A stretch of 63,083 bases of DNA, the filler included. It is 12 parts of 12 records of this genome, joined end to end, with 100 filler letters (N's around TTAATTAATTAA, not from the genome) between each part and the next. Parts side by side here need not be neighbours in the genome. Positions count along the whole stretch, not along the records: positions 46,155 to 51,493 come from SRR9670534_141; positions 51,594 to 53,791 come from SRR9670534_162; positions 53,892 to 57,788 come from SRR9670534_163; 9 more parts are not named here. One strand, written 5' to 3'. The notes under the pieces are model-generated. The model was not told the origin of the DNA and did not search any database. It was given only the letters and a program-made list of their open reading frames with translations. Shown piece by piece: positions 3,567 through 63,083 of this stretch. The stretch's first letter is position 1. Each line of letters starts with the position of its first letter. The position numbers were made by a program, and so were the translations under genes.

Positions 3567-3666
3567 NNNNNNNNNNNNNNNNNNNNNNNNNNNNNNNNNN
3601 NNNNNNNNNNTTAATTAATTAANNNNNNNNNNNNNNNNNNNNNNNNNNNNNNNNNNNNNNNNNNNN
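3567..3666. other. Artificial contig spacer N44-TTAATTAATTAA-N44; also at 10591, 16387, 27826, 32911, 37372, 42809, 46055, 51494, 53792 and 57789 (each 100 bp)
   Basis: An identical 100-bp spacer with a six-frame stop linker recurs 11 times. Genes such as the polycystin, MFS and TSP1 genes lose their 5' exons at these joins. Confidence 0.97.
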
Positions 3667-16333: not shown

Positions 16334-16959
16334 CTACAAGTGAAGAATTTCTACATTAAATTTATTATTATTATTATTATTAATAANNNNNNNNNNNNNN
16401 NNNNNNNNNNNNNNNNNNNNNNNNNNNNNNTTAATTAATTAANNNNNNNNNNNNNNNNNNNNNNNNNNNNNNNNNNNNNNNNNNNNGACGTGTTTCGCAT
16501 GCACTGTCTGAGAAAGTCACTTTCTTCCATACCAATAATCACGTGTTTGCATTTAGAAATGACTTGGCCAGCTACAGTAAAGCTATACCCATATCATCCT
16601 AATTTTGAGCCTCCTACGAATGTCCTATCAAATTAGAACACCTTTTCAAAATTTTGTAACTCTAGCCATAACATGCAAAAAATACCTACTAAAATTATCC
16701 TGCACCTCAATGAAAACATATACCACTATATACAAATTGTATAATACAATATACATACAATTGAATTAATTCATAGGCCTACTATACTACTTGGTGGAAT
16801 ATATCAATAATGTACTAATAATAAGTATACCAATAAATATATGTAAATGAGGTTAATGTTGTGTAGGACTGCATAAATTATTGTTAATATTATTAATAAA
16901 ACAATGGAACGGTAATAACATTCTCTATATAATTATTAAAACATGATGCCACTACAATG

Positions 16960-26869: not shown

Positions 26870-28418
26870 TTTTGTCATGTTAAGATCATTCCTAATGATA
26901 AAATAACTTGGAAAATATCATTTCTATTTACAAGCTTACTCAAACATACCAGAAGAAAAAGACAAATGCCAATAATAACAAATACAGTGTAAAAACAGAA
27001 CAGTGACTTATTTTGACTAAAACATAGCACCATAATCAGAAATTGTTAATATATATGCAAGATCAATAAATATTCATTAAAAATAAAAGGGAATGAAGAT
27101 TTTAGCATGCATATGTAAAATACTTATTGACATTATAAGCCATAATACTAATGATTGAATAACAATTTGATACAATACAGTAATAGACTATATATTACTC
27201 TACACGATAAAATATTTTATATATTATTAACACATATTGATAGTAGTACTGTAGTACATATTGAAAGTTTTATTGTTAATAACTTAATAATGCAGTCAAG
27301 GCTCAATCATAACTCTGCTTTGCATATACCATGTAGTATTTCGAATGGATGACTGTTATGCTTCTGTTTTCATTGGTTATTGATTTTACTGTTGTTAAAT
27401 AAATAGCACGGCCCGTGCTGTACGGGATAACAAAGAATGTAATGATTCATGGTAACGTAATTAGTAATTACATGGTAACTTAATGCCTAAAGGTTAGGGC
27501 CCTAGACTTTTGATTTAATAACCATAAAAGTTATGGGCTTTATGTTAATAATAACATGAGCCATGTTACATATATTAAGTATATAATTGTTCAAAAAATG
27601 AAATGTAAATAAAAGCAATAACCACGAACTGAACATAAAAACTTAGCGTGATCATTTCATTGATCAGTATTTGCCTTGTATTGAATCAATACTACTGATT
27701 GTATCGTACATACATATTTACATATTTACAAGTTTTACAGTATCGATAATAATAATAAACAATGTATATATTGAAAAATTTACATGATTTTGCTATACAT
27801 GTACCGTACATGATGTACATGTACCNNNNNNNNNNNNNNNNNNNNNNNNNNNNNNNNNNNNNNNNNNNNTTAATTAATTAANNNNNNNNNNNNNNNNNNN
27901 NNNNNNNNNNNNNNNNNNNNNNNNNAAAAAAAAAATTTTTGAGACACCCTAGTGTTACATCACTATTGATCATTATGTAATGAGAAGTAGAGGGGTTAAA
28001 TTTTGCATGTTTTTGACAAACTTTCTCAAATTTTACCCCCAACTAGGTGACGTCTATTAACATTGTGTACATAAGATAGATGTCAGGTAGTCAAGCCACC
28101 AAATAATCAAATGGTATTAATTAAACATCTACTGTTAATTAGTTATTCCAAATTAGTTTTAGTGTTATACTCAAACAAATGCAGAGACATCTTTTTTTCA
28201 ATACATTTTTACATGTAACTTTATTTTAAGCTGATTTTGAGAATTCACATTTTATTTTTGATAATTTTATTTTAGTGTACTACAGACTGTAGTACAGTAT
28301 AGTAACTACACAGTGTGTATATAAATGACATTGTACTTTTAAAAGAGCAATGAAAGCTATATTAGACGTAATTACTAGAAATGCACGTTCAAAGTATAAA
28401 AATAGTGATTTTTTTTAG

Positions 28419-35903: not shown

Positions 35904-37712
35904 GTAAGTCAGTTCTTTTCCTACTAAGAAGGTCGTTCCCACCTGTTCAGGTAACAAAAGGGATACGAACAATGAGGCTGTACTGTTAGTAGAGGATATT
36001 TTCAATAATTTTCAAGGAATATACATATGGAAACAGGCTTGTACATTCGTTGAGTGGGCATTAGCCTTGGGGGTTTATTATACGGTTTTACTGGGTACTC
36101 GATATTTAATATACCTAATAAGAATATTGGTAATTGGTAATTTTAATAATTGTATTCCAAATTAATAAGCATAATGTAGATGTAGTACAAAAGTGTTTGA
36201 GAACTAATAATATATTATTTTAAGAAATGGGGCAACTGGGGACAAATCATAACCATATGATAAGTTGTTGATTCTGCACCCCTTTTCTTTTATCTATTAT
36301 TATTAATAATTATTGATAAGTAATTTATTAATTATAAATTATTGATATATTAATTATTATTATATAACTAATAATAATAATAATAATTATTAATTATTAT
36401 ATAATTATTGATATATTAATTATTGCTATATTGATAATTTATTAATTATTGATAAGTAAATAAAGCTTTACCTAAATATATCGATTATATTTAGTAATTT
36501 AATATTCTGTTTAATAATATTTACTTACATATAATTAAATATTCATTTCTATTAGTTGCTAATTATAAATTATTACTAATAAAGACAACCTTGATTTATG
36601 CTATTCTTTATTAGCAATAATAACGATTTATCATTACAAATATAATTAATTATTATTTAATTAGCACTATTAATTTTAGCTGCATTAATAACTGTATATA
36701 ATTAATAATAATTAATCATACATGATTAGTATACTTAGTTAAAACAATTAATATTAATTAGATATTATTAATAATGATTATTCAAGTGATTTATTAGAAA
36801 TTAAAAAGGTAGTAATTATTATTAATATTATATATATTGAAAATAAGAATAACGTTAAAAGATCAATATTATTACATTATTATATAAAAGATGTAGGATA
36901 GTAACAGTACAGGCTGAAATTTACAGCTGTAATCTAATTATAAAGCAAGAAAATGCAAATTTCATAAATGCTAATGCTAATTAAATGCAAAGATCATTCT
37001 TTTTTACTACTTATGAATTCTGGATAGACTTTTACGATAACAATAATAACAATAAATCAAAATGAAAGGTAAGTGAATTTGCACAATTTGTGGTTTATGA
37101 TTTTATTAAAGTAATAGGACAATAAAGACTTTTTTTTATTAGATGTACGAAATGAAAATAACCATAATTTAATAGATAATATTTTAATAATACAATTATA
37201 ATTTTTCCTTTTACAGTGTATATTTATTAATAAAAATAATTATATTTTGTAAATGTAAATATTATAATTTTGATAATTTTTAATGTAAATATTATAATTT
37301 TAATAATTTATCAGCATCAATAAATGATTTATTATAAACCCAAGGTAATTAAAATAATTACATCTATAAATNNNNNNNNNNNNNNNNNNNNNNNNNNNNN
37401 NNNNNNNNNNNNNNNTTAATTAATTAANNNNNNNNNNNNNNNNNNNNNNNNNNNNNNNNNNNNNNNNNNNNTTAAGTGTATTAAGTGGTCCATGATAATA
37501 CCTATTGTTTGCTACTAAAATGGTTTACATCGTTAAATTATTAATAATAACATTAAATCATAACCATGATTTATGGAGTACATTCTGCATTATTAAAAAT
37601 GGTATATTATTAATATTATTACAATGTATTACTATTACTACGGCCAAAAAAAGGTCTATAGTACATGTATACTGATCAGGATAAAATATTGTCAAAAAAA
37701 AGTTCTTTCCGT

Positions 37713-42579: not shown

Positions 42580-44346
42580 CTAAAGATTTTCTATTATCTT
42601 CATATTATATTAATTATTATTAACTAACATTATTATTATTAATAACATAGTAATATTATGTATTACCAACAAGAGTATTTGTATACTTACAGTATAATTA
42701 TAAGTAAATTTCATAAATAATATGGTATACCATGCTATTTATATATTATTATATACTATATATTATTATTATTATTATTATATATTATATACTATATATA
42801 GTATATAGNNNNNNNNNNNNNNNNNNNNNNNNNNNNNNNNNNNNNNNNNNNNTTAATTAATTAANNNNNNNNNNNNNNNNNNNNNNNNNNNNNNNNNNNN
42901 NNNNNNNNTGTATTGCATTGTTATTATTATTAAATACAATAACTTCATAATCTATTACTAATAATATTATCTGTTTTTTAGTATAATTTCATAGTCTAAT
43001 AGTATCATAATTTATTAAAACTCATAATGCTAATATTCTAGCTTTGCTCCTTATTATTTTATGTCTATTAATATTAGCAGGCAATTATTACAAACATTAA
43101 TAATAAATTAATGATCAACATTAATAATAAATTAATGATCAATTCTTTCTGAAATTTGCCAATTTGTTGATATTTCTTGAGAATGTTTAAGGTGCAATTG
43201 CTAATTACCTGTTAATTGCTAAGCTATGATAATCATAGTATTGTATGATTGTCATAGTTTTTGTATCATTATTATTATATGTAGTTGCAGTAGTTATTAT
43301 AAATATTACATATATTAAAAAATTGAATATTTTTAGAATAAAGTTTATTGCAATGAAAATATTGTGTATTTATTATTAATGAGCAAAGTTGTAGGAACAA
43401 AATTAGAGAACAGTAACTCAAGCAAAGAAAATTACTACATGTAAAGAACAATTGTGATCAATTGGACAATGACAAAAGTGCATTAATTAACAAGCTGAAC
43501 ACCATTTTGAAACAATACTAATAATAAAAGAATAAAATGTAACAAAGGAAAAATGATGCGGATTAAATGCAATAAGATACGTGTCTGCATATTCTGTAAC
43601 AATTTTCATTGCGTATTGCAAAACTACAGTCTGATGTACAATGGTACAATTTGTACTGTACAATATCTATACATTATAAAGACTTAGTTTTACAGCAATA
43701 TACATTGTATATTATACAAGCATTACCATGGGACATACTGTAAGGTGAACCGCATTGATGTACTGATACAGCATATAGATGTACGATACAGATGTACTGT
43801 AAGAAAAACGTAAATGTACAGTACAGTATATCTACTGTATAGCTTCGTAGTAAGATGTACCATATTGCGTCGTTAATGTACTGTACCGTACATGTACCAT
43901 CAAAATTTCGTTGTAAAATGTACCGTACATATAAGATACATCTTACAGCGAAATTTTTATAGTACATGTATGGTACGTTACATTTAATACGCCATATAGT
44001 ACATCTTACAGAGAAAGTTCATAAATCTACTAGCTTTGCAAATCTTCGTAAATGTATTGTACCATACATACATAATACATTTTGTAGTACTGCGCATAGT
44101 ACATTTTGTAGTACTAATATGTAGTACATTATGTACTGTACATATTGCTATCTAAGTTAAATGCAAAACATAAGTATTTGGAAGAAGCATATAAGTATTT
44201 TATAACGTAGTAACAACAATTACAGTAGGAGTATTTTTATAAAACTAAGCTCTTGATAAAATAATGTTGTATATTTTCCAAACAGTGTAACAATAAACAA
44301 AGTACGAACAGGCATGAATAATAAAAGTCGTAATATGTTGCAAAAA

Positions 44347-45098: not shown

Positions 45099-46154
45099 TT
45101 TTACAAATTTCTAAAACAAAATCATCATAGTAAGGCTATTGTCAATGTAATATGATACGTATCATACAATACATGCACCTTCCTTTCTTCGTACTAAAAA
45201 GACTAAATCCTTGTCATTGTAATAACATAGGTAGGTACATAAAATTTTTGTGACAAAAGATATTTTATTGTTATTACATATTATTATTAATAACAATACT
45301 GGATTTGATACAATTATACAATGTAGTATGTATAGTTGTATCAGTAAATTACATGCCTACAGTAGTATGTACATATGTGCAAATTAAAAATACATATAAA
45401 ATATAATAATAATATGTAATACATTGTATGTAATACTATGTATGTAATTTATTGTTTACAAATTTACATTGCAACAATATATAAAAAAAATATCTTTCTT
45501 TTTTGCTACTTGTATCATATGTATATACAATTTGCATAAAACTTATATGATAAAATTAACAAATAAAAGCTTATATAATGTATATATAATGATAACAATA
45601 ATACTTATGAATGTATGAAAAAACAACAGTTATTGAAATTTGCTACAGTAGTACTACAAATGCTAGAAAAACAACAGCAACTTGGGCAATTCTTAGTTAC
45701 CATAAATGTTTGATGTTTTTTATAAAAAGCTAATATATCTTAATTGTAAAGTATATTATATTTATAAATTAAAGTAGTTTATAAACCATATTACTTAATT
45801 TCAAACAAAAATGAACTATTCAAATATACTTAAAAAATTAGATAATTTTATTAACAATAATCTTTTTTTTCTATTTTAAAGTTTTATCATGAAAAATTTA
45901 ACAAATAATTAACTATAATGTACTTACTTAGTTATTATAAAAACTATTGATAGTAGATGTTACTTTATAATAAAAAAGTATAAACAAAGACTTGGCTAGT
46001 AAATAATATTTATATATTACTATTATTTTTATCAATAAAAGTACATATAAAAAANNNNNNNNNNNNNNNNNNNNNNNNNNNNNNNNNNNNNNNNNNNNTT
46101 AATTAATTAANNNNNNNNNNNNNNNNNNNNNNNNNNNNNNNNNNNNNNNNNNNN

Positions 46155-46923
46155 TAAAAATTAAAATAGTTTATAAAAATTAAATTAATAGTTCTGCAAA
46201 TATAACAAAGTAAGATATAGTAGTTTTTATATTTTTATTCAAAAGTTGATAAAGAAAAGAGTATTAATTTTCAACCATTGAAGCAAAGCATTCAATCTAA
46301 TATATCTCCCAAAATTAATTCACAAAAATATAACAATCAAAATAGTTTATAATAATTAAAATAGCTTATGAAAATTAAAACAGTTTATGAAAATTAAAAA
46401 GTTAATAAAAATTAAAATAATTTATAAAAATTAAAATAGTTTATATAAAAATAAAATTAATAGTTTTACAAATATAACAAAGTAAGATATGGTAGTTTTC
46501 TATTTCTGTTTAAAAGTAAATAAAAAAAGCATTTTAATTTTTAATTATTGAAGTAAATAATTTAACCTAATATATCTTCCAAAATTGAAACAATAGTTAA
46601 GACAATAGATAAAAATCAAAAATTAAGTTATAATTATACCTATTTGGCAAAAATTAACAATAATCTTAAATAAGATAATTTGCAAAAATACAAAAGAAAT
46701 TTTAACATAAAGTAGGAAAGTAAAGTTGAAATTATCAAACAACTTTTATCATTACAAAAAAATATAACTACAATTTCACAGATTAAAGATAATAAAGCCT
46801 ATATAATCTGTCATTTTCATTAGAAGTTTTTAGTTTTATTATTACAAAAAAATACAACTATAATTTTACAGATTAAAGATGATAAAGCCTATATAATCTA
46901 TTATTTTCATTAGAAGTTTTTAA
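46155..46923. repeat. Degenerate direct repeats, including a 90-bp tandem pair (46744-46833 and 46834-46923)
   Basis: Aligned by eye: the 90-bp copies differ at 8 positions, all transitions, with no indels. Confidence 0.85.
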
Positions 46924-47859
46924 TTAAGAATCTAGCATTGTTGGCTAAGAATTTGCTACTTATAATAGTTAATAAGAAAAAGTGATTATATAAATATACT
47001 TGTTTATTGTTGTTATTTATATATGTTTTTTGAATTAATTATATTTATATTTAGAAATGTTAATTTTTTAATATGTCATATCATTTTTTACATTTAATAA
47101 AGAAGCATTATAGTTTCTAAAAGCTTATGCTATTATTATTATTTTTTGCTTATTATTGGATAAAAGTTATTTTATTAACTATAAGTAAATTTCTATTATA
47201 CTATAATATATGTTACCATATTATGAAATATGTCTATGTAGTGTTCAAACAGCTTAAAACTTTACAAAAATCGAAAGTTTATAATTTATTCTATAATTTT
47301 TCTTCTTCAAAAGTATACAATTATATTGTCAAAATTATAATTATATTATTTAATATGATGTTATAATAACTAGAAGATTATTAAAAAGATAAAAACTAAA
47401 ATATGCTGTAATAAGTAAAATAATACAAACTTATAATGACTAAAAAATATTAAAGAGGTAAAAGTTAAAAAAATTTAGAAATACATAAGATAATATGACT
47501 ATAAAGTGATAAAAAGGTAAATGTATGGAATAAACAAAGTTGACTTATGTATTTATAGACTTTTGTTGAATCAATTAAGTTAAAACAATAATGTCTGTTT
47601 GAGTTATGTTATTTTAGAACATTATATAAAAGGAAAAAGTAATAGGTAGGCTTTTATACATTGTTTACCACTGAAATCCTAAGAAATAGATAGCATAACC
47701 TTATTTTACTTGTGTAACCTTATTTCAAGCCTGTTTATGAAAAGAATATTACTACTACTCTTACCACCAAAATCCTAAGAAATAGATGGTGTTATTTAAA
47801 GGACTTTCAATTGCCACATGAACATCTCAACATCTTTAACATCTTGAAGTCAGCAATTA

Positions 47860-49100
47860 TAAAATGCCTTTCCCTCAATTGGGACATTCGATACAATAAA
47901 CTAGTTCTTCTCCATAACCTAGATCCCCATTTTCTGAAATTTAAAACTCTCTGGGTATAATGAATTTAATTCCTTATCTGTTGATTTTCCAGAACCTGTC
48001 GATTTTCCAAAACCAATTTCATTTGATGATAATGTACCAAACTTCCTACTACCATTAGAATTGAAACTTGAAACAGCTGAAGCTATTCAATGGGATCCTT
48101 TATCTGAATTGAATGATTCTTTCAGCGAAATTGAAACAAAATGGGGAACCACTTACCTGTTGAATGATGCAACAGAGAAAGAAACTGCCAGCTTTCATGA
48201 AAGTGCCATTGTAAAAGAGAATGCCAGCATTGATTATCCACAGCTACCACCTAATTTTATGAATAGTAAACAATGTAGCACTATTGATCCTATTGAATAT
48301 GATATGATGTCAAACATGAGGCCTATTTACTTTCAATCATGTTATTGTTCTTTTCATAGTCAAGTAAGGTACAAATATAGCCTGTTTTACCTGGCAAATC
48401 TCTCTTATAGAGATTTACAAGCTGAATGTCGCAAATGGCCAGGTCTAAGTTCATGTAGAACCCGCCTCAATTTAATTTATAAATTGCTTTCGATTATGGA
48501 AGAAGGCGTGGTTAAATATAGTAAACAGTGCATTGATTATGTACCTTTAAATATACATATGCATTGTACCATTAATGCTACGAATTTGTGTAACCTTATT
48601 CAGGCCCTTTTTCAGCTTTATTTTGATAATTGTATCGAGAAGAAAATGTAATGTTTATTCTTGGAAGGAGTTGTCAAAGTTTACCTTTTACAGGTATATT
48701 GCTTTTTTATGATAATTTTTGCTACTTATTATTATTTGTAGCTCTCTACTTTGATGTTTTTTGACCTTTTGCTTTGAAAAAAGACTTTTGTTAGATCAAA
48801 GTTGGTAGCTATGTTATATGTAATTGAAATGGCAGGAAAAAGAAGCATTAAATAATTAATTATTCATACATTATCAAAACATTTAAAGAATGTGGTAAAC
48901 AGTCTTTCTATATGGCAACAATCAAATTGATTAGTTAAAGATGTGAATAAAGTTCATATAATGGTGTCAAATCTGTTCAAGATGGTTTATTTATATGAAC
49001 AAACACTTAGTAATCCTGTATTACTTATTAAGTGGTCTTAAGATGATAATTTAATGTATTTATGTATGTAGAAGGCAAGAAGGTAATATAATTATATACT
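47860..49100 (+). pseudogene. Decayed ORF region including 48061-48651 with a SAP-like motif; probably transposon-derived
   Basis: LANLSYRDLQAECRKWPGLSSCRTRLNLIYKLL resembles the SAP helix-loop-helix. The flanks are stop-riddled and CpG-poor. Confidence 0.4.
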
Positions 49101-50099
49101 TTTTGCAAATAACTTTGATAACATTATATATAAATTTAAATTTCTAAGTTAGATTTAAAAAAAAGTATAACTGCAACAAAAATACAACATTTATGTAGCT
49201 GTTATTGCAAAAACAAATTTTTAGTCAGCTAATTTATTTGCTACTCTTAATTACTCATTGGTATATGCTGATAAGAATTTAAATATCATTGACAAAAAAT
49301 TGAATAAAGGCATCTTAATTGCTGTACACAGATCCATCTTCTAATAGATCTTAATTGCTGTACACAGATCTATCTTCTAACTATAATAGTTACCTAACTT
49401 TTTTAATAATATTGTTTCACTATGAAACAGGCTAGAAAGGAGGCTACTTAGCAAGAATCATACCAGCCTTGGTGAATTTAAGTACTATGTAAGACAAATC
49501 TTATGGGACCACTTTTTGGAGGATCCAGCATTTATGTAACATACATTTGAACAAACCTACCCTACTACTAGTTACTTCTGTTACTTGTTGCTATTTACAT
49601 TTCAATATCTAATCTCATATTTTTTTTGTTTAGACATAGTTTAGCAGTATGTCAATTGTAGTCAAGATCTTCTACTCTACTGCTATTTTGTACCTACATA
49701 TGCTGTCTATGTTGTGCTATTATATAATTGCCATTATTACCTCAAAATTTTTCCATATTATAGCCATGATTCTTAATGAACTAATTATCATCATATTATT
49801 AAGCTTACTTATCTGATCTACAATCATTTGAAATATTTCTTTCTGGTGAGAAATTTATGGAGCTTTGTTTTTTACATTATAGCTTTTGATTTTTTATTGA
49901 TTACAAACTATATCATGGCTATTTCATTAGTACTTTACACTGATATAGCCATATTATACTATTATATGTGTTTTTACCTATTTATTTTCTCAACAATAGA
50001 GAAGTACCCTAATACATAATATTATGTGAGAGAATAAAGAAGTAATTAACATAACAAAAATTAACAAGTATTATTAATATCAACAAAAACCTAGAATTT

Positions 50100-51493
50100 G
50101 CAGATATAAGGTTACAGTTTACCAAAGGACCAGTAGCAATTTATGAGGTTTATAAGCCCTCTAACATTTTTATTAATATAAGAAATAACCAATTGTGGGC
50201 AGCTATTAACAAATTGGTTAAAATGAATTGTAAGAATTTTTACATGCTTACAATAATATAATGTCATTGAGGAACATAAATCTATAAAAGATAAATTGGG
50301 TAACCAAACAGTTTCCTGGTAAACATGTTCAAGTATTTAGTGAATTTTAATTGAAACCATTTTGAACAATATTCAGTTTAAATTTACTAAGAATTTGAAA
50401 ATTTTTAATCTTATCCTTGCAACCTAAGACAATAATATTTTTTAGTGCAAAGATTATTTGTTAATATAAGTTTACCAAGGGAAACAAATAACAAGAAAAA
50501 AGATAAGTTAGTTTGTAATTGAAAACAGTGTAACTAGAAAGCATTTAGTTTATTTCTAGAAAAGATAGAAAATAGATCTTGTATATTTGATAACTCTATT
50601 GATGTTATTTTTGATCAAAATTATATCAAAGATCTTTGAGATACTTTTTTTGCATTTATTACTAAAAAAATGGATTTATATGCTCATTTTACTAGGCTGT
50701 CTGCTACAAAATGTTTCTTAATGGTGAAAAAGTTTTCTATCTTAAGAACTGCTAAAACCTATAGAAATAAGCTTTTTAAAAAATGAAAATAAGAATCTAT
50801 GGTCTTTAATAAGCATAAGCTGAATAGGGCTTATAGAAAAGTGAGATATCATTTTTGCAAGAAACTTATTATTTTAGAATTGTTAGAAATTTGTAGCATA
50901 AATAAGGATAATAAAAAGCTTTGAAAAAAAGTAAACTTTTAGCAGAATAAGTATATTTCATACTTAATATTAAGGCTGTAGATAGATTTGTGCATTAGTT
51001 TGATGAGTTTAAGGCATTCTGTTTTAATATATTTTAGCATTTTTGTAAAAGATGATAAAAGTGAATTCTCCTTAGCTATTAAATGCAACTTGAAATTTTT
51101 GATTACTGATTTTGAATTTTGAGAGTTGAACAAAATAATTAAATTAAGTATAAAATTTAGTTACATATGAAAATATGAAGATAACTATAAAATTTTAAAT
51201 ATAACTGCTAATTATAAAGAGCTGCAAAGTAATTTAGATCAAATTTGTAAATGGTTGATAGATTAACTACTGTTTTTTGTAAAGTTAAAATGTTGCCATA
51301 TAGAATTTTTTACAACAATACATTCTATAGTAACTTTATTTATTAATAATTAAGCACTTAAAACTATATAGAGGGAGAAAGATATAGAGATCTGACTAAA
51401 CAATGATGTGAACTTTTATCTAAATTACTTTTATGTACATTATAGAGAGCCTTTCAATAAAACTTTCTCTTATAGAGGTAATAGTGGGAACAT
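50100..51493 (+). mobile_element. Decayed CR1/L2-type non-LTR retrotransposon ORF2 (APE endonuclease and RT C-terminal relics)
   Basis: IYEVYKPSN (cf. ICGVYRPP), LRNINL*KINW (cf. GDFN...INW), KYEDNYKI (cf. YADD.K), LQSNLDQICKWLID*LLF..KC (cf. LQ.DLD....W...W.L.FN..KC) and REKDIEI (cf. EKDLG). Confidence 0.75.
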
Positions 51494-51615
51494 NNNNNNN
51501 NNNNNNNNNNNNNNNNNNNNNNNNNNNNNNNNNNNNNTTAATTAATTAANNNNNNNNNNNNNNNNNNNNNNNNNNNNNNNNNNNNNNNNNNNNTAAATTG
51601 TTATTAATTTTAAAA

Positions 51616-52158
51616 TTAATTTATCTCTATTGCTTCTACATTTTTCAGCAAATTTGATCTTGTTAAGAGAGTATAGCTTTTGCAGTTTATTAAACTTAAG
51701 GATTGCCAGAAAAAAAATAAATATTTATAGCTGCCAGTTGAAAGGGTTTTACATTCATACTTGGAATAATAAACAGCTGATAGGTAGTCAATTAGCTTAC
51801 TATTGTATTCTTTTAAAGCATACATAATTTTTTTTTTATTTTTAAATAATAACTTGGGCAGAATTTCCATAACTATAGTAACAAAGTCATTAGCTGTATC
51901 TTCAAAGCGATGCATTAAGGAATTGATTTTTATTGTTGGTAATTTACTGTAATCCAAAGTTTGTGCTGTAAATTCAGGTAATTTTAAAGATCTTAACACT
52001 AGTTTAATTTCATTTTCATAGTCAGCTATAGGTACTGCTATGATTATATCCAATAACTCTTCATCAGATTTTCCATAAGTAAATAGTTGTTTAAATAAAA
52101 TATGCAAAATTAAAAGTGTCTTTTCAAAGTATTCTCTAGAACGAAAAATGGCATACAT
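51616..52158 (-). CDS. Hypothetical 180-aa ORF, divergently oriented from the collagen-repeat pseudogene; possibly part of the same virus-like element
   Basis: Intronless helical-looking ORF in CpG-poor DNA. No recognised domain. Confidence 0.3.
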   Translation of the reverse strand: MYAIFRSREYFEKTLLILHILFKQLFTYGKSDEELLDIIIAVPIADYENEIKLVLRSLKLPEFTAQTLDYSKLPTIKINSLMHRFEDTANDFVTIVMEILPKLLFKNKKKIMYALKEYNSKLIDYLSAVYYSKYECKTLSTGSYKYLFFFWQSLSLINCKSYTLLTRSNLLKNVEAIEIN

Positions 52159-52317
52159 ACTATATGGAAAGTTAACACTGAATGATTTACCAATATAAGA
52201 TATTTAAGTAGAGTGTTTTGATTAAAATTGTATATATGTTTTTGATTGATCCTAAAGCTGTTTTGAATTAATTTAAAAGAGATAAATATTCATATTTGTA
52301 TAGTAATATTGAATCTA

Positions 52318-53090
52318 GATGGTAATGATGATGCTGATGGTCTATAGAGATCCCCAGGTCTGCCCAGTAATAATAATGCTAATAGTTAGCCTGATAATAA
52401 TAGTAATGATAATCTGCAGAGATTTTTAGGTCTGCCTAGTAATGATGGTGCTGATGGTCAGCTTGATGGTGATAGTTTGCTTAAACCTTCTGGTCAATCT
52501 AATCCTCAAGGTCCTCCTGATCCTCAAGGTCCATTTGCTGTAGTAGTTAGATCAATATACTTTGGAGGAGATTTTAATGTTGGAGAAAACTTGAGGTTAA
52601 TGGTAAATGCCAATAGTAATGGCAGTACTACTGCATATACCTGAATACCAGCACAATAGAAGAAAAAGAAAAAAAATGTATATAGAAAAGGCCAAGATGT
52701 TAGAAAATTAACATAGAAACATGTAGAGGCATTAAAGGTAGAATGTTTTAAAAAGCAAGAGAAATAGAAGAGAATAAAAAATGCAGATATGGCCAATTAG
52801 CTTAATAAGAAATACTGTGGTTTAGATGCTAGTCCAGGCATAGTAGAGTATCAAATAGCAGACCTTCTCAGGACTGGGGTTTTAAATTCTTATTTTAAAA
52901 AATATGGATTAGATGTAGGAATACAAAGCAATAAACATGAATTACCAGTAGATATAGGGATGCAAACTGAATTGGTTTAACTGATGAATAATAGAGAAGG
53001 CAACTCAAATCTTGAACATCTAAAATTTGGCATAAGTGACATCATTGCCAATATCATATATTATAGGTACATAAATTGTATGTGCAGCTA
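52318..53090 (+). pseudogene. Intronless collagen-like (Gly-X-Y) repeat protein pseudogene with many in-frame stops but no frameshift
   Basis: DGNDDADGL*RSPGLPS..GADGQ..PQGPPDPQGP, followed by about 180 codons in the same frame interrupted mainly by TAG. Contains a 72-bp tandem duplication (52321-52392 and 52393-52464). Confidence 0.75.
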
Positions 53091-55149
53091 ATTAATTATT
53101 ATTCATAGGAATGATAACATTTATTCTTTCCAATATTAGGTGGACTATGGTATATATTATCTATTGTACTAATCTATTGTAATAGTAACTAACATATTGA
53201 TAGTATGATCCTGTTTAAGTTTAAGCTTATGTTACATTTAAGTTTACAATATAATTATATGTAGGTATATATAAAAACAAATTACAGTATGCATTGAAAG
53301 TTTAGAAATTTGTAGTATATACAGAAAAAAAACTAATAATTATATATCAAACTTTATACCTAAAAAATACATTTTAAGTAGTATTATATTTTTTCTATAT
53401 GCAAGCTAGATTCACTATTTTTTTATAAAATCATAAAATCTACAATTAAAAAAGATCTACTATAGAAGAAAGTATACTATTTTTTACAAAAATTTTATAT
53501 ATATTTTTTTAATACATTTACTGTATTATGTATAGATATGTATTATATTGTTTACAATTATTAATAAAAAAAGTCTACAATGCTATCCTAAAAATAGTAT
53601 TTTTGTAAAACATTTCTGAGAAATATACCATTAAAGAAGATCCACTATTAAAAAAAGTCCATAAATAAAAATTTATAATATGATATATTTTTAACTTATA
53701 TTTAAAAGTTTACTAAAAATAACAATAGCATACATACCATAATATCTGGATAACTGGCCACATTTGATAAGTAACCATACTTAATAAGTAGNNNNNNNNN
53801 NNNNNNNNNNNNNNNNNNNNNNNNNNNNNNNNNNNTTAATTAATTAANNNNNNNNNNNNNNNNNNNNNNNNNNNNNNNNNNNNNNNNNNNNGGAAATAAA
53901 CTCTTGCCTTTTAAAAAAAACAAGTTTATAGAAAAAAAGTTTAAAACTATAAGAGCTATTTGTAATTATTATGCTAAACTTTCTAGTTAAAGTATTAATC
54001 TATTTTACAAATAATTTATCTATTATTATTTATATTGTTAGCAATAATGTTCTTTAAGATATGTAATTATAATGTTACTTTAAAAAGATATTTAGATATA
54101 AAAAGTTTATTATTAACAAAATAATTTCAAAGTGTTTTACAAATAAACTAATATTATTTAATAATGATTATTATGCTATTATCTATTATCTATGAAAAAA
54201 TTAGGTACTTTAGTCTATTTATTTAAATTTGTAAAAAACTTAATAAGTTTCTTTTTTAATGTAATAAAAGTTATATGTAACAACATAAATTAAGAATTTT
54301 TAAAGTTAAATATTATAAAATATTTAAATATAAATATAAAGTTACAAAAATAAAAATAACTTAAATTATATATAATATTTATAATACTATTAACACTATT
54401 ATTAATAGACCTCTACCATTTTAATTGATTGAAGACGATGCAATACCTATGCCAATTAACTGTTTGAAACTTAACAAATCTAATTAGATTTAAAATACTT
54501 CAAAGATTTTCTAAGTTCAATTATTAAAGTTTTTTGTCTTAAAATTTTTGAAATGAAAATAAGATATACTTATTTTTATTATCTATATATAAATTGCAAA
54601 GTAAGCTATGCTTGAAAATATTACAGAGTGAATTTTGCTATGGTAAATTTAATCTATCTATTATTAAATTTATCTATAAAGATAAATTTAATAAAGATAT
54701 TTTATACAAAATTTCTTGCTGATTTTTTTTGATAGTTGCTGAAATTGTCACTGTCTTGGACATACTCTTTTATCAATGAAGATATATTACATATTATTTA
54801 TATGTAATTAGTAAACTTCTCCTGTTAGATCAAAGGTGTTTAGAGATTGTATTTAAGGTTTGAAAATTTAGATGATTGCTTTAAATATGTTCAAGGACAA
54901 AAAGTCTAAATTTTTCTATAGATGAAATACTGTGAGACCATTCCACAAAATTTCTGATGCTGAATTTTATCATATTAGCATTCTTCTAAATACTAATTTC
55001 AACCCTTTGAAGTACAATTTGGATACTGAAAAGAACAAGGCTTGATCAGAACATTTCTAAGGAAAACAATATCTTCCACATTGGTAATTTTGTATGAAAT
55101 ACAGCTTAATGCAAAATATTAGTATTATATTTTGTACTTTAGATCTAAC

Positions 55150-56330
55150 CAATGTCTGCTTTCAATGAAAGCAATTGAACCAAGTGGCTTTTATGAACTC
55201 ACTTTTCTGGGTGAGCCATAATCCTGTTGCCACTTAGTTTGGTGCCAAATGAAAAATGAACATGTCTAGATTTTTGCCAAGTTTTTCAAGGCTGTGTATA
55301 GCTCTCAAAAATTCTTTGGATATAAGAGCATTGATGTTTTTGGATATAGGCCTTGCACTTCTGAGAAGAGATCTGGACAATCAAGCCCCTTTACAGCTGT
55401 GGCTGGATTATTTATCTAAAGAACCCTCTAATGTTACTTACAGAAGAGAAACTTCTAGCTTTTGAACAAAGTTTTACCTGATACTTTACCAAAAAACAAT
55501 GCTTTCTTTGCTAGTGTAGAAGAGATTGTGGGTTCTTCTACCAGCCAATTGTTTTTTTTGCCAATGCACATTCTTCAGACCTTGCTGGTATTGCTGGTAT
55601 TTCTGCTATTTTTGGTATAATTTTTTTTCTTTCTTTATTATTGTTATTATTATTATAATGATAGATTTCCCACAGTGCCTTATTCTACTGCATGCATTTA
55701 GTATCTCTCGACACTGACAAACTTGAGACCATTATTCATGAGTCTCACAAAAAATGTCTCTTTTGGGTCACAATAATAATGAAAGAAAAATTAGCAGTCA
55801 CATTGGTTGGATAAAGTGTCCTCAAATTGATATGTTTTATAAAGTTACTTATTATAAAGTAATTCACAGTTACTTGAATATACAGGCCATTTGTTAGCAT
55901 TTTGATTGGCTAATAAAAGAGCTTCTAACCATCAGATCTGTCTATGTCCCTAATGAGGTTGTTTCTAAATATATTTTAGAAAAAAATCAAGTAAGAGAAC
56001 ATTGTCATAATAACTCTTACTTACAGTTGGAAGTTTCCTAGCAATAAGCTATTGCTTTTGCATCTAATTCTTTCTATTTGGCTTTGCTATTCCTTAAGCA
56101 TATTCATAACACATCACCTTCCAAAGAAGGCTTCAAAAAAAATGTCCTGAAAGTCATAGATCTAAGAAAGAATATGCATGTAAAGAATTTTTAGTGGAAG
56201 TTTGTAAGAAATCTACTAATATATGCAAATACTTACATAATAAGGCAGTGGATAGGCACCCCATGTTTTTTACCAGAGAAAACCCTTCTAAAAAGAAGAA
56301 ATAATTAATAATTAATTTATTATTATTTTA
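55150..56330 (-). pseudogene. Decayed, apparently intron-containing gene; possibly a SWIM zinc-finger (MULE-type) transposase
   Basis: Two GTAAGT donors with coding-like segments, QCDC*FFFHYYC (SWIM-like CxC...C) and a downstream CSFFIW (GRF-finger-like). Many stops. Confidence 0.3.
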
Positions 56331-57276
56331 AAAATTTTATAATTTTTCAAAGTTTAGGTAGTATGGCACTACTTGATGCTATGCATCTTTTGCAGTTGCC
56401 TGATCTTTTACTTGTTTCAGCAAAAGAATATGTGCTATCTGTGTTAAAGTATAGTAACTTGTCTGCCCTAGCTATATATGACTTTAAAAACTGCTTTTAT
56501 TTGAATGTTTGACCATCTACCCTCTCTGGGATTGCTTCAAAGTATGAAAATAATCTTAGATGGGCCAATATTACTACAGTGTAGCAAATCTATAACAAGT
56601 TGATTAAATTGGGTGGCTATTTTGCTGATTTCAGTAACTGATTAATGAGTATTACCCAAACACATTACCCTTATAACTTTATTAGCACTTATAATGCCTT
56701 ACATAAATAACATCATATTTATATAGGGAATCATCTCAAAAGTTTGCATAATACTACCAAGTGATTTTGAAAAATTCTAAAATTTTCATGTGATAAGCTT
56801 TAAAAACTGTGTTAAGCTTTTTATATTACTTACCTTATGGCTTAATAGATGTTAAGAACATTTTGGAGTATTTACTTTTCTTTAAAGTAGCACTGTAGTT
56901 ATGCCAATTAGCTCAAAATCTAAATCATAAAGTTTCTCTATATTATTGTTATTATTATTATTATAATATTAAGTTTATTAAGTTTAGCTGAGTATGCCAT
57001 GTTTGTTTTTGTTTATCATATCATTATTGATAACAATAAATAATAAAGTACTTTTATTATCAAATCTTTCTTATGTTATCTTGTTAGTAAATGGATGACA
57101 TCAGTATACAAGCAGGTGGAGACTTATCTCATTAAATTTGAGCTTTGCAAATTTTTCAAACTTACAAGTTTACTGAGTATGTCTGACATCTTTTTCTAAA
57201 ATGCATAATAATTGTGATTATTTTAAAATAATTTATTAAATTTTGTCAAGTTACCCCTAACTTTAGGAAGTTCTTA

Positions 57277-57788
57277 GTGAATGCTATTGACAGATGTTGC
57301 TATTTGTATAGCTATTTATATGAAGAAGATACAAAACTTATTGATTTTATTAATAATAAAGTAAAAGCTCCAACTTTTGCACTGATTCACATTAAAAACA
57401 CTAAGTTTAAGCAATTAATTTTAAATATAGAGTTGTTTTTGAAGCTTCAGAAAGTCATCAACCAAACTAATGTCTATTGTATTGTAAAACATGGCACATG
57501 GTTAATTACTAATAGAAAATTACCTGTTATTGCCCATTCAAGAAATAACCAGGAATTCATTGATGACTTTAATACTTGGCTGCCTCAGTTTCAAGAAGAA
57601 ATTGATTGTGGTAATCTTCTGTTCATAAATACACTTTCAGCCATCATTTTTTCTCTCTTTCTTGTTTCTAAACCAGACAGAAAAATAAGGCTAATTACTA
57701 ATGGAAAACAATCCCTAAAAACAGGGTTTAACTCTTATAGCTCTAATCCTCCATCCTTTATTATTATTATTATTATTTATTGGCTTCT
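57277..57788 (+). mobile_element. Fragment of a DIRS/Ngaro-like (tyrosine-recombinase retroelement) reverse transcriptase
   Basis: FQEEIDCG..SLFLVSKPDRKIRLITN..GFN resembles the start of the RT domain (E...G..SPl..VPK.DGK.RLI.D...S.N). Cut by the contig end. Confidence 0.5.
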
Positions 57789-59009
57789 NNNNNNNNNNNN
57801 NNNNNNNNNNNNNNNNNNNNNNNNNNNNNNNNTTAATTAATTAANNNNNNNNNNNNNNNNNNNNNNNNNNNNNNNNNNNNNNNNNNNNTAAAATGAAAGA
57901 GTTATTCTCAAAAAATGTAGCTACCTGATAACTACATATTGAATTAAGAATCTTAATTTTAATCTTAATTTAAGATTGATCTATATTTCTAGGATAGAAA
58001 CAAGTCACTTACAGGTCCCAACAATGCAAGTTGCAAAGAAAAGTAAGTATATATTTCTCAGGCAGCAACAGAACATACTTTCCTTAACAACATTAAACGT
58101 TAATGATAATAACAAAAGTCTTATTATTATTAATTGAAATTGATCCTATCGCGATATTAGTAGTGACACATAAACAGCATTATTATACATGAACAATTAG
58201 TTGTTATCACAATTGCTGTCACAATTATCATACCGGCACTCATAACTAGACATAATGTGCACCATTATTCATTTATAATGGTCAAATGTTATTTCTTTAT
58301 GCTTGATAACCATAACAGTCTGCATTATCTATTCAGGGGATTGTGTCATTATTGTGTTTCAAGAAATTAGTTGAAGTCAACTACTACTACTACTACTACA
58401 AATACTCTTACTACTAGTAATATTAAAATTTGTCTGATCTATGAATGTCCTTGGTGTAGCAAGACCTGAAAAAATGTTATTAAAGCCCAATAGTTATAAA
58501 TGGACCTAGAATTTTTAACTGTTCTAAGAGCGAAACATAAGCGACAAGTGTAGCTTACACTGTGTAAGTGCCAGCGTGTCCTATCGTCACCAGTACTACT
58601 CTGAGAGTACTACTACTATAGTACTACTCTGAGAGTAGCAATAAATAGATCTCTGAGATATAGGCTATATCATATAGCATACAGGTATGAAAACGAGTCG
58701 TTTACATACAGTTTGCAACATACCTGTATGCCATATCCTTGTTGTAATGATACTTTCAAAACCAACGAAGGTAATTAACTTTATTAATTAATAATAATCA
58801 TTATAGCAACCATAAAGTCTGATGAATCAATGGCTTTCTCAAAGTTCAAGATTTCCTCCATTTTGATTTATCTGTTATTATAATCTTATCAACATATGTA
58901 TTGTAGCTATAGCGAATATTACAAAAGTACTGTTTCCAATACACGATTAAAATTCTGGACTCCAATTGGAGTATTTAAAAACACAACACTTTCTAAGAAT
59001 TTGAAAATG

Positions 59010-62000
59010 CTATTGAAATCGTTGATGATAAACCTAATTAAATGGTATACAATAGAATTTTATTCCACAAGTATTGCTTTGACTTTACCAAAATTTAATC
59101 TCGGTGGAAGTATTGATCTATAATTTATAGACTATAATTTATAGACTATAAAGTATATACTATAGATAGATTCTATAGGCTTACAGACATCAATCACCTC
59201 ATACAAACCAAACTATAAGAAATTGGGCTGAATCAACACTGTTTATAAGTCTCAAGCAGATTATATTTTATTTGTAAAAAAAGTAATTATATTTGAAAAA
59301 AAGTTGGATAAGTATTCTACTAAAAATTTGCTGAGCCATTTGCATGTCTTTTTTGTACCTAAAAGCAGCAACAAATTCTAACTATTATAGTGAATAGTAT
59401 TGACTCAATACATATGCTATTGACAGTTATTAATTTATATTATAATTTTAAACATATGTAACCTTACCTGAGCAATTCTTTTACTTGCAGCTTCGCTTAA
59501 TATTTTTTGATGCATTCTAGAAGTCAATTCATTGTCATACACACTGTGGGATCCTCTACGTCCACCTTGATGATTCTCAAAGCTATTAATATCATGCATT
59601 CTGATATTTTCACCATAAGTAACCTCAGAATAAATTTGATGTCCATCATCGTCTGCACTCAGGGAACCATAATCATCATTTCTATCTGCTCGATGATGAC
59701 TATGATCATTACTTTGATTCAAAATAATTGGGCGTCTTGGTAGTGTTGTTTGGCGAACGCTTTTAATGTGGCGTTTACGAACAATTAAGATTATGATTGC
59801 ACAAATGATAATAATAGCAACAATGGAACCAACAGCAATCAAAGCAGTTGCTGTTGTGTCAGGTCCAACATTAGAAGATTTGGTAGAATACCTTTCATTA
59901 AGTTGTGTTGTTTCTTTTGACTTTGAACTTCTTGTAATTGTTCCATCCTTTGAAGTTTCTGCACCCTGTGAAGTTTTCTCTGACTTTGAAGAACTTAAGA
60001 TAGTGGATGTGGATTTTTTGGATTCTTCTGCTCCAGAAGAAGTTACTGGGGTAGGTATAGTGGATGGAATAGTTTGAGGCACATATTCCCTTTTCTTAAC
60101 TTCAACAAAACTTTGCCCAACATATTGGGCATTACTCAATTGGCTAACTTCAGCTATAGCTAACTTAGCATTGAATGCTTTTTGTTTGTCTTTTACTATT
60201 TCAACAACATCTGTTGTGTTTTTAACAAACATTGCTTCATAATGAACATCAAGATTTGCATTTGATGAGGGCTTTCCATCTACATTTTTCCTGATCCTTG
60301 CATGTGGTTGTTGGCTTGCTTTCATTGATTTCCTCAATATTATTTGATTAATATTGATACCAATAAACCCAGAAAGATCTTTAAACATATTCTCTAGCTA
60401 CAATTTTAATAGTAATTACTAATAACTTTATTATAATAATTATTAATAATAAAAATATTTTAGTAATTGTAATATATTATATAATAATAAAATTTTAAAA
60501 TCACATGATTTTTTTTTAATATGATATAATGTTTTTTGAATATGATGTCATATAATTAAATTTTAAATATCATAATAATAATAATAAGAAGTATATTAAA
60601 AATATTATTTTTGCTTCACCTGTTTTCCAAAGGTTCTCTTGAATTTAATGTGTGCTTCAGACTCTGGGTTTCTTAGAGCTGCATTCAATTTATTTATTTC
60701 AGCCATGTCAGCAATATTTAGCTGTAATGTTAGTTCAACCTCAACAATTTCCTGTGTAGCTGGATTTGGTAATTTTTTTAGATGAGTACATCTTCTAGCA
60801 GGCAAAGGAATATGTTTAGCCAATACATCTGTCTTAAAGTGAAGAATGCTGGCACTTGGAAAATGGTCTATTACATTTTCTTTGCGTCTGGGAAATTTAG
60901 AACTAATAGCATTATGTAAGGATGAGGTATCACTAATAACATTTTTTGAGACAATTCCTATCATTACAGTTATCTCAAGAGATTTTGCATGTAAAAAAGC
61001 TTTTAGGTAATGTGTTGGTATAAGAAGACATTGTGATGACACATGTGATTTATTGGATACTGCATTTGCCACTATATAAACCAAAGAAGCTGCTAAAACA
61101 TCTTTACTATTGGAAGATAACCTACCATTTTCAATATTCATGTTCTTTGGTATTGTTAAACTCAAGTCAATATTAACTGGGTAATAATAGTAAATGGTTT
61201 TTACAAATTTCTCCACTTCTCCTGTAGTAGTTAATTTAATGTGTTTGGGCTCAGATATAGTTATGACTGGTGGATCATCACTAGTCCATAAATCAGATGG
61301 TGAAAGATTTTCTTTAATTTGAAATTTGACTAAATAGCTAAAAAGACAATTATATTTATTAATTTTCTTCAATTTTAAAATAGCTAAAAAGTAATTTTGT
61401 TCTTATTATTAATAATTTGTAATGCTATCAGTATTTAATAATTTGAACATCATTAATTTTATCTGTACTACCATTATTATTAATCGAGATTTAATAATTC
61501 ATATATCCCATTACATAGATATATTTTTATCAAATAATAAGATAGTATACAAATATACTAATAATTTGTTATTTATTATTAACAATTTATTATTTATTAA
61601 TGATAATAATAATTGGAAAATATCAAACATATTATAATACCTAGTGTTACTAGCAATTGTCCCTTCATACACCAAGACATCTGTACTTGTTTTGCTGCTC
61701 TGAAATTCATTAAAACATTTTATATTACTAATATATTATAAACTTCTTATATGAAAACTAGTTGTTAGTGATAAATAATACAATATTGCAAAGCATTACA
61801 AATTCTTTTTTAATTTCTTCAATTAAAATTGCATCCAAGTTGATATCCAAAACAGAATACAAATTTATGCTACTACTTAAATGGACAGAATAATCTGACA
61901 ATTCATCCAAAGGATAACTTGAAATTGCACATTGAGGTTTAGTTGCAGCATCTAACATAATTGTCTTTCCATTGTTAATTATATTCAAGCTAATATCATT

Positions 62001-62280
62001 TATCTTTGTAGTAATAGGTTTAAACCCTTTGGTAAATTCATTGTTAAATAAATTAATCATTTGTCTAATGAATTTTGGATTAGATAACTGATATAGGTTG
62101 ACAAATCTTTTATCTACTAAAGCTTTAAATGAAAAAGTTGTTTTAAACAAGCGAACATTATTTCCCAGGGGTCTTATTGGTGATGGATTAATTTGTGGCT
62201 GAGTATAAGCAAGACATAGTAAACCATGTGGACCTCTTTCAGCATTTTTGAGCTGAAACATTAATAATAATTCTGAATTT
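59010..62280 (-). CDS. 3' part of a type I membrane protein with a SEA-like domain, Ser/Thr-rich stalk, TM helix and Tyr-motif cytoplasmic tail
   Basis: VEVELTL..LRNPESEAHIKFKRTFGKQ|LENMFKDLSGFIGINI (SEA-like), an S/T-rich stalk, TM ALIAVGSIVAIIIICAIIILIV then RKR, and a tail with YGSL and YSEV. The probable last exon is VYHQRFQ* (59010-59033). Confidence 0.65.
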
Positions 62281-62669
62281 CTGAAAATTTTATCATATAA
62301 CAAAATACATATTATCAACTTCATTCAATTTACAACAGTAGTTTTAATAAGCTAAAAGTACTGTTATGAATTGTAATGCTGATAATATGAACTTTATTAA
62401 TAATAAATTATTATATGACATCAATGTTACTTGGTAGGCTTTACCTTATTATTATAGTACAGCAACCAAGTATATGTAAACTATTGGGTGAGTGAAAGAT
62501 AAAGTAGCCTCTTATAATTAGTAGCTAGTAATTATTAATTACTGATTTCTGGAAAAAAAATGTTCTGTTATGCCTACAACATATTAGCATCCTAAAATAA
62601 AAGTCGCAGAAACACATTTTGCGACTTTTCCCCTTAAAATGCTAACCATACAAAATTTTATAAAACTGG

Positions 62670-62770
62670 CTTAGTTTGGCATAGGTCACCACATAACTAG
62701 TTTTATCAACCAACAACCACCTTAGTTTGGCATAGATCACCATATGACTAGTTTTACCGACCAACAACCA
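62670..62770. repeat. Tandem duplication of a 50-bp unit
   Basis: CTTAGTTTGGCATAG..CCAACAACCA twice, with 5 differences, all transitions. Confidence 0.85.
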
Positions 62771-63083
62771 GAAGACCCAAAGATAGTCATCTTCATTATC
62801 CAATTTGTATATTGATGACTACTGTGATAACTAAGATGACTAGTCACTAGTCCTCATAAAAACATGAAGAAGGCTACTTTATTTCACACCCACCTACTAA
62901 TATACTTATATAGTAATATCCATAATTTCGTGCTGCCTAATGTAAGTATAGTAAGGTTATGCGTATTTGGAATCCTATAGAAAGGTTATAGTCATGCTAC
63001 GGTAAAGTAAGTATTAGCACATTCTGAACGAAGTAAATTACGTTTCCCGTGCCTTTTTTTAGGTAAAACCCATTGAAAATCAA

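Follow-up and report, generated by a model that had tools for sequence, protein, structure and literature searches.

Organization of the analyzed sequence

The sequence analyzed here, a stretch of 63,083 bases that we call the window, consists of 12 contigs of 2.2-11.3 kb (c1 to c12, in order), split by 11 identical joints. Our subject is a set of three consecutive contigs, c9 (46155-51493, 5339 bp, GC 24%), c10 (51594-53791, 2198 bp) and c11 (53892-57788, 3897 bp), which are almost devoid of CpG dinucleotides. For these contigs, an original prediction made from the sequence had proposed that repeats and transposons of an animal genome are hypermutated in a way that resembles the repeat-induced point mutation (RIP) of fungi. 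Each joint is made of 44 N, the 12-mer TTAATTAATTAA and again 44 N. Since this 12-mer gives a stop in all six frames, we infer that the joints are synthetic. The first six are found at 3567-3666, 10591-10690, 16387-16486, 27826-27925, 32911-33010 and 37372-37471, and the remaining five at 42809-42908, 46055-46154, 51494-51593, 53792-53891 and 57789-57888; c9 is bounded by those at 46055-46154 and 51494-51593. Sequences compared across a joint are therefore unlinked. What had been treated as one locus is really three unlinked contigs (c9, c10 and c11), the genes used as a contrast are located on other contigs, and one of the repeat pairs brought as evidence (at 62670) belongs to c12, outside the region to which the claim had been assigned.

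Loss of CpG is regional and is not directed to repeats

The number of CpG dinucleotides observed in c9, c10 and c11 is 10, 2 and 2, as compared to 79, 37 and 68 expected (14 vs. 184 in total). The corresponding observed-to-expected ratios (o/e) are 0.13, 0.05 and 0.03, so that the description of these tracts as nearly CpG-free was correct. The o/e of GpC in the same contigs is 1.51-1.58 and is therefore unaffected. Elsewhere in the window, the CpG o/e is 0.55-0.92 on c1-c4 and c6-c8, 0.28 on c5 and 0.33 on c12. The genes with which the CpG-free tracts had been contrasted do keep their CpGs, the o/e being 0.72 for the JAB/STAMBP-like gene, 0.74 for hexokinase and 0.78 for the mitochondrial-carrier open reading frame (ORF).

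When noncoding DNA was defined as that left after masking ORFs of at least 70 aa, its CpG o/e on c1 to c12 was, in order, 1.04, 0.98, 1.08, 0.65, 0.29, 0.72, 0.65, 0.54, 0.00, 0.00, 0.04 and 0.44. These values form a continuum, not two classes. The long ORFs of c9-c12 are CpG-depleted too (o/e 0.0-0.41). The loss of CpG thus covers both unique noncoding DNA and long ORFs, and it is regional and not targeted to repeats. As many as 10 of the 14 surviving CpGs lie inside two ORFs (47938-48651 and 51616-52203), which account for 1302 of 11434 bp (11%); this is the pattern expected for mutational decay in place opposed by selection.

Contig c12 is a mosaic, with 24 CpGs in 58098-59778, 3 in 59779-62604 and 9 in 62605-63048, and its central stretch may correspond to a methylation-like domain with a boundary inside a single contig. 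The virtually CpG-free 2.8 kb of 59779-62604 span two long orphan ORFs, 60605-61402 and 61758-62324 (-).

Other dinucleotides were also considered. The CT/AG o/e of noncoding DNA is 1.12-1.22 in c9-c12 as compared to 0.76-0.95 in c1-c8, and it is raised only where CpG is lost. The TpA o/e of c9-c11 (0.92-1.13) is like that of the other contigs. The GC content at third codon positions (GC3) of single-copy genes is 0.21-0.41 on all contigs, and therefore a strong general GC-to-AT pressure acts on single-copy genes.

Duplicated sequences on the CpG-poor contigs

Repeat pairs were found by self-BLAST of the 12 contigs and with Tandem Repeats Finder. The five main pairs of c9, c10 and c12 have units of 36, 51, 72, 90 and 164 bp, and their copies differ by 54 transitions and 8 transversions, so that the enrichment of non-CpG transitions that had been claimed for duplicates is present on these three contigs. 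Contig c11 has no informative internal repeat.

The 90-bp tandem duplicate of c9 (46744-46925, +, 2.0 copies) conforms best to the original description. Its copies, starting at 46744 and 46834, show eight differences without indels, all of them transitions, seven in CpA/TpG context and one at CpT. The 36-bp tandem duplicate at 49312-49380 (+) has one difference, a C/T at CpA. The 51-bp tandem duplicate of c12 (62670-62770, +; copies at 62670 and 62721) shows five transitions in five differences over 50 bp, as had been reported, followed by a terminal transversion at position 51; one of its differences is CpG vs. CpA.

The 72-bp tandem duplicate of c10 (52320-52476, +) gave 24 transitions and one transversion over 85 aligned bases, and the earlier count of 21 transitions among 22 differences for the copies at 52321 and 52393 was reproduced. 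This repeat sits in a triplet-periodic, coding-like (RRT)n tract for Gly/Asp/Asn/Ser (codons GGT, GAT, AAT and AGT), and 16 of the 24 transitions are A/G exchanges at the first two codon positions. Since A/G is the only exchange open to (RRT)n tracts at those positions, these 16 transitions are codon-constrained. The 27 bases between the codon runs contain seven transitions and no transversions. Copy 1 has two in-frame TAGs, each of which faces a CAG in copy 2; copy 2 runs on into an open 84-aa frame. We also observed that the A/T states of the repeat are not scattered and occupy one contiguous patch of about 65 bp (approximately 52372-52437) across the copy junction: G/C is found in copy 1 at 12 of the first 15 differences and in copy 2 at 9 of the last 10. 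The patch looks like either a local transition cluster or a local shift to Asn/Ser codons.

The longest repeat pair of c9 was missing from the original prediction. It consists of direct repeats at 46155-46316 and 46425-46586 (+), which flank a 19-bp minisatellite (46329-46457) and differ by 15-16 transitions, 7 transversions and 4 gap columns. A majority-rule polarization of the minisatellite was set aside, because, with C-to-T decay proceeding in parallel, most units would come to show the derived state. Three further small repeats gave transition to transversion ratios of 1:2 (c9), 1:6 (c11) and 1:3 (c12), that is 3:11 together. The statement that duplicates show hardly any differences other than transitions, and no indels, is accordingly valid for the three pairs that had been cited, and it does not extend to the longest pair of c9 or to the three small repeats. 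The list of pairs was selective, and the impression of "transitions only" was strengthened both by the choice of pairs and by the codon-structured (RRT)n repeat.

RIP indices and the hypothesis of a repeat-directed mutator

RIP-affected DNA is recognized by a high TpA/ApT ratio, a (CpA+TpG)/(ApC+GpT) ratio below about 1.03 and a composite index above 0. On c9-c11 we calculated 1.01-1.03 for the first ratio, 1.21-1.30 for the second and -0.19 to -0.29 for the composite index, and this check, which the original prediction had itself suggested, was negative on all three contigs. Compared with the other contigs, c9-c11 are neither depleted in CpA/TpG nor raised in TpA. In 500-bp windows, the few positive values of c9-c11 were small, and the windows of these contigs did not differ from those of the CpG-rich contigs.

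The strongest positive composites of the whole window (up to 0.67) were seen on CpG-rich contigs, in GTAC/ACGT-rich palindromes and tandem repeats that keep many CpGs. The windows concerned are 43850-44009 (c8), 1-500, 6001-6500 and 12501-13500. The first of these is a 160-bp palindrome, whose arms differ by 8 transitions and 7 transversions.

Neurospora RIP is known to act on duplications of several hundred bp, which are longer than the 51-164-bp units found here. The hypothesis that an animal possesses a homology-triggered, RIP-like mutator, or a deaminase directed against repeats and transposons, could explain why three to four tandem pairs differ only by transitions, with no indels and with a preference for CpA (see below). 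It would also fit the A/T-shifted patch across the junction of the 72-bp repeat and a relic reading frame of about 0.85 kb that contains many stops and no evident frameshift. Nevertheless, it has to face the negative composite index, with no window that stands out from the CpG-rich contigs, the equal CpG depletion of unique DNA, the seven transversions and the indels of the longest pair, and units below the length of Neurospora RIP substrates. The literature surveyed, as far as its passages on this subject go, has RIP in fungi only.

The sequence context also bears on the deaminase. In all context counts the G/C state was taken as the older one. The 5' neighbours of the changed C are TC 21, AC 16, CC 12 and GC 5, with background shares of 0.33, 0.33, 0.16 and 0.18, and no APOBEC-type preference for 5' TpC, CpC or WRC was found among the 54 transitions. 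Moreover, C/T and A/G differences are interleaved and not strand-coordinated. A deaminase of the APOBEC type as the mutator is not supported. Since the indices are negative, the CpG loss is contig-wide and the longest pair of c9 has a ratio of about 2:1 with indels, we do not favour RIP, and a homology-triggered mutator or a repeat-aimed deaminase appears to us very unlikely. What survives of the RIP-like, repeat-targeted mutator originally proposed is the presence of non-CpG, CpA-favouring transitions in duplicates; the indices and the absence of repeat targeting in the loss of CpG argue against the rest.

Orphan reading frames and a possible transposon relic

The three contigs contain mostly orphan ORFs and relic frames. 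The orphan ORF of c9 (47938-48651, +, 237 aa from stop to stop) holds 8 of the 10 CpGs of this contig. Pfam recognized no family in it, the best Atlas score was 0.78, which is not usable, and a metagenome scan returned 52 pattern matches and no relatives; the AlphaFold2 model obtained from the single sequence had a pLDDT (predicted local distance difference test) of 38. On c10, an ORF of 195 aa (51616-52203, -) contains both CpGs of the contig and has no Pfam family; the same holds for Pfam in the open frame of 84 aa that follows the 72-bp repeat (52390-52644, +), whose product is Gly/Pro/Gln-rich and then hydrophobic. Reading with the ciliate code (table 6, TAG = Gln) opens a frame at 52267-52644. 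This possibility was rejected, because long frames arise everywhere in this AT-rich DNA with table 6 and because the genes on the other contigs read well with the standard code. On c11, an ORF of 185 aa (57232-57786, +) reaches the contig end and contains no CpG. A HMMER search against 1.84 billion representative proteins gave no homologue for it, and a frame of this length is very unlikely to be open by chance at 28% GC. Pfam analysis of ten ORFs of c9-c12 gave sub-threshold matches only.

A relic reading frame with many in-frame stops is located on c9 at 50050-51450 (+). Over 530 codons (49902-51493) it has 28 stops, as compared to 57 and 70 in the other two plus frames, and its lead over the other frames holds from about 50500 to 51325 (about 0.85 kb) without evident frameshift. 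It is plausible that an ORF decayed here mainly by substitutions. By eye, this frame resembles a long interspersed nuclear element (LINE), a resemblance that no tool confirmed. In the read-through searches the stops were replaced by X. Pfam found no family in the six frames of c9, none at E <=0.01 in those of c11, and, with E allowed up to 10, none in the plus frames (all three) of 49900-51493. The relic frame had no match among PDB sequences, and no match at E up to 10 in a search of 5.8 billion proteins limited to lengths of 291-928 aa. The LINE motifs that had been described were thus not confirmed as a LINE by Pfam, PDB or the 5.8-billion-protein search. Self-BLAST of the 12 contigs showed no dispersed repeat common to contigs, except for AT-rich low complexity. 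For the "hypermutation of transposons", the window thus offers no copies to compare: no transposon was identified by any search and none has a second copy in it, a further point against a mutator aimed at transposons.

Origin of the contigs

The animal origin that had been assumed is supported by animal genes and a bilaterian microRNA, at least for the contigs with recognizable genes. The Pfam families detected are Mito_carr (c1), Glyco_transf_22 (c2), JAB and PKD_channel (c3), APC1 (c4), Hexokinase_2 (c7) and Ran_BP1 (c8). The proteins that best match the single-exon low-molecular-weight phosphotyrosine phosphatase of c2 come from fishes, from an adelgid and from molluscs, with an identity <=54%, and therefore the lineage has no close relative in the database. 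This phosphatase is present as two tandem single-exon paralogues, 8713-9180 and 9680-10177 (-), with a DNA identity of about 63%. The sole Rfam family above threshold is a mir-8/mir-141/mir-200 precursor (31668-31736, -; 52.3 bits), which sits on the CpG-poor contig c5 (o/e 0.28); we take the mir-8/mir-200 family to be bilaterian. A tRNA scan found none, and the protein database searched with the APC1-like exon gave no match among the longer proteins, to which this search was confined. On c9-c11, nothing was recognized by the Pfam, Atlas, representative-protein and metagenome searches made on them.

Trinucleotide profiles were compared after leaving out the words that contain CpG. The profiles of c9-c11 are alike (r 0.62-0.87) and less like those of c1-c3 (r 0.21-0.49). 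Together with the coincidence of CpG lack and transition bias on c9-c11, with the lack of any gene on them that is tied to animals or belongs to a Pfam family, and with the 185-aa ORF that has no homologue, this observation might suggest that c9-c11 come from another organism in the sample (a symbiont, a parasite, a food item or a fungus) whose genome is CpG-free and transition-biased. However, GC and GC3 of c9-c11 match those of the animal contigs, and c5, which carries the bilaterian precursor and is itself CpG-poor, has a profile correlated with those of c9 and c11 (r 0.70-0.72). Contig c12, which mixes CpG-normal and CpG-free stretches, is correlated with the hexokinase contig (r 0.84). 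Furthermore, the CpG o/e varies continuously across contigs, and the RIP indices are unlike those of RIPed fungal DNA. Because of these correlations, of the matching GC and GC3 and of the continuum of CpG o/e, it is more likely that a single genome, divided into compartments of different composition, is the source of all contigs, and a contaminant as the source of c9-c11 would surprise us.

A methylated compartment as the proposed source of CpG loss

The explanation that we favour, and to which we give about an even chance, is that c9-c11 represent a compartment with few genes and heavy germline methylation in an AT-rich bilaterian genome, not a product of RIP. According to this explanation, the genome would be a mosaic of CpG-normal and CpG-free domains, and c9-c11, in which orphan ORFs and relic frames predominate, would belong to the latter. 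There, germline methylation of cytosine (5-methylcytosine) would be nearly complete at CpG and superimposed on the strong general GC-to-AT mutation pressure, and methylation-driven decay would remove almost all CpGs except those held by selection. The process would be regional and not repeat-specific. The few short tandem duplicates would simply diverge under a spectrum dominated by C-to-T changes, and no homology-sensing machinery of the RIP type would be needed. Both the methylation and the direction of the changes are deduced here from base composition and from the comparison of copies.

A rough equilibrium arithmetic at 22% GC gives a CpG o/e of about 1.1/k for a k-fold hypermutability of CpG. 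By this rough estimate, an o/e <=0.05 needs a k of roughly >=20, which is high, not exotic. The favoured explanation is also in line with the raised CT/AG on c9-c12. A 2026 preprint on 1,234 genomes reports that AG/CT enrichment is the strongest co-signature of methylation-driven CpG loss, that a CpG-mutability term alone reproduces the AG/CT signal and that transposons show the strongest CpG depletion (10.64898/2026.09.02.747768). Similarly, transposon-targeted CpG methylation is described in the relevant passages of a study on cnidarians and other invertebrates (PMC8857917).

Transition excess and its sequence context

Several observations weigh against CpG methylation as the whole explanation. 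First, noncoding CA+TG o/e is 1.08-1.14 on c9-c11 as compared to 1.08-1.36 elsewhere, so that the loss of CpG has no reciprocal excess. Second, among the differences between copies there is no adjacent double difference of TG vs. CA, and only 1 of the 54 transitions touches a CpG; therefore simple CpG decay fails for these sites, and the original prediction was right in that CpG deamination alone cannot give the differences seen. Third, the transition bias distinguishes groups of contigs. With the three small repeats added, c9-c12 give 57:19, while eleven pairs of c1-c8 give 42:63 (Fisher p = 4e-6), and the contrast persists when only differences involving G or C are counted (Fisher p = 5e-5). 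Fourth, the repeats of c5, which is CpG-poor (o/e 0.28), gave 21:36 and have no transition bias, and therefore CpG poverty alone does not predict this bias. Finally, the changed C on c9, c10 and c12 (n = 54) is followed on its 3' side by A 34 times, by C 12 times, by T 7 times and by G once, with background shares of 0.41, 0.16, 0.42 and 0.01 for CpA, CpC, CpT and CpG, respectively (chi-square p = 2e-4). The preference for CpA that had been claimed (34 of 54 as compared to a background of 0.41) is thus found, in a small sample. Taken together, a small but significant excess of transitions in CpA context exists, which is confined to c9, c10 and c12.

It may be asked whether this excess reflects nothing special, that is, an ordinary transition-biased spectrum, the choice of striking pairs and the artefact of the codon repeat. 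The window contains at least 15 repeat pairs, of which the original prediction had named three. Without the pair at 52320, the ratio becomes 30:7, which is marginally above a 2:1 expectation (p = 0.04), and against the same expectation the pair with eight of eight transitions gives p = 0.04 and that with five of five p = 0.13. In addition, the control repeats of c1-c8 are mostly very AT-rich (9-16% GC in c5) and some are poorly aligned; AT-rich controls give about 1:1 by chance mismatch, and the p-values therefore overstate how clean the contrast is. On the other hand, the difference between the groups of contigs survives when only ungapped, well-aligned pairs are used (54:8 vs. 22:26, p = 7e-6). 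Furthermore, an asymmetry between CpA and CpT is not expected of selective picking, and it is seen also without the codon-repeat pair (n = 30: CpA 19, CpC 5, CpT 5, CpG 1; p = 0.01 for CpA and p = 0.003 for the deficit of CpT). An ordinary spectrum, seen through selected pairs and a codon-repeat artefact, is in our view a very unlikely explanation.

A regional mutation process coupled to methylation and acting outside CpG deserves more attention, even if we judge it unlikely. Silenced domains would carry methylation at CpA and, to some extent, at CpC, or would undergo deamination mediated by DNA methyltransferase (DNMT); C-to-T change at CpA would then be raised throughout the domain and be visible only in duplicates, as if the mutational arm of RIP were at work without repeat sensing. 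The CpA context of the transitions, with and without the codon pair, and the restriction of the excess to c9, c10 and c12 agree with this process. So do the trinucleotides of c9-c11, in which those with CA/TG (ACA, CAC, CAT) are relatively depleted and those containing CT/AG enriched, and the fact that CA/TG shows no rise although the decay of CpG is total. The two TAGs opposite CAG in the open copy 2 of the 72-bp repeat also polarize two changes as CpA to TpA. Against it stand the tiny sample (5 pairs and 54 transitions, 24 of which come from one codon-structured repeat), a direction of change that is known at these two sites only, the TpA content, which is not raised, and the negative RIP indices. 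Moreover, the CpG-poor c5 shows no transition bias, and the AG/CT enrichment is predicted from CpG loss alone in the model of the preprint cited above (10.64898/2026.09.02.747768).

A more specific version of this idea seems to us quite unlikely. It holds that a mutator coupled to methylation strikes silenced domains and turns C into T outside CpG as well, at CpA more than at CpC and at both well above CpT. Such a mutator would erase CpG completely and would let duplicates and relics diverge by transitions without indels, whether or not repeats are sensed.

The heavily methylated compartment remains the explanation that we prefer, and known biology, together with the fact that the window is a composite, accounts for most of the finding. 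The view that this kind of defence is fungal would fall if a repeat-directed, RIP-like mutator were at work in an animal, and the evidence falls short of this. A methylation-coupled mutator, if it exists, would correspond in an animal to the mutational arm of RIP. Apart from these possibilities, the window shows cleanly a compartment stripped of CpG that stands next to genes with normal CpG, in a lineage without a sequenced close relative, and the excess of CpA transitions is a lead on whether heavy methylation in an invertebrate carries a mutational cost outside CpG.

Comparison with known systems

In Neurospora and other fungi, RIP involves RID and DIM-2. The duplicates described here resemble RIP products in that the differences between copies are of the C:G to T:A type, prefer CpA and include few indels, and in that stops lie opposite CAG. 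They differ from them because the indices are negative, CpA is not depleted, TpA is not enriched and unique DNA is equally CpG-free. Moreover, the units measure only 51-164 bp, the spectrum of the largest duplicate is normal and the host is an animal.

The transposon hypermutation of basidiomycetes at TpCpG or CpG, as presented in the pertinent part of its description, shares with our contigs a methylation-linked loss of CpG in repeats; however, the informative differences found here lie outside CpG and the loss extends beyond repeats (PMC3318451). In the same way, the editing of retroelements by AID/APOBEC in vertebrates produces clusters of G-to-A and C-to-T changes in relics of mobile elements without indels, according to the sections of the source that concern it (PMC4866542). 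In our case, by contrast, no 5' TpC, CpC or WRC preference is seen, both strands are affected within one cluster and the affected DNA consists of tandem genomic duplicates and not of retro-copies. As far as the relevant parts of the surveyed literature are concerned, deaminase editing of retroelements is known in vertebrates only.

Another parallel to the putatively methylated contigs is the mosaic or transposon-targeted germline CpG methylation of invertebrates, in the form in which the sections consulted for it present it (PMC8857917; 10.64898/2026.09.02.747768). The contigs depart from it in the extreme depletion (noncoding o/e 0.00-0.04), in TpG/CpA, which is not raised, in the conserved housekeeping genes, which here form the CpG-richer class, and in the differences between duplicates, which are non-CpG transitions. 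They agree with it in the regional depletion of CpG with sharp boundaries, in the survival of CpGs in coding sequence, in the enrichment of CT/AG and in the location of all these features in gene-poor DNA made of relic frames.

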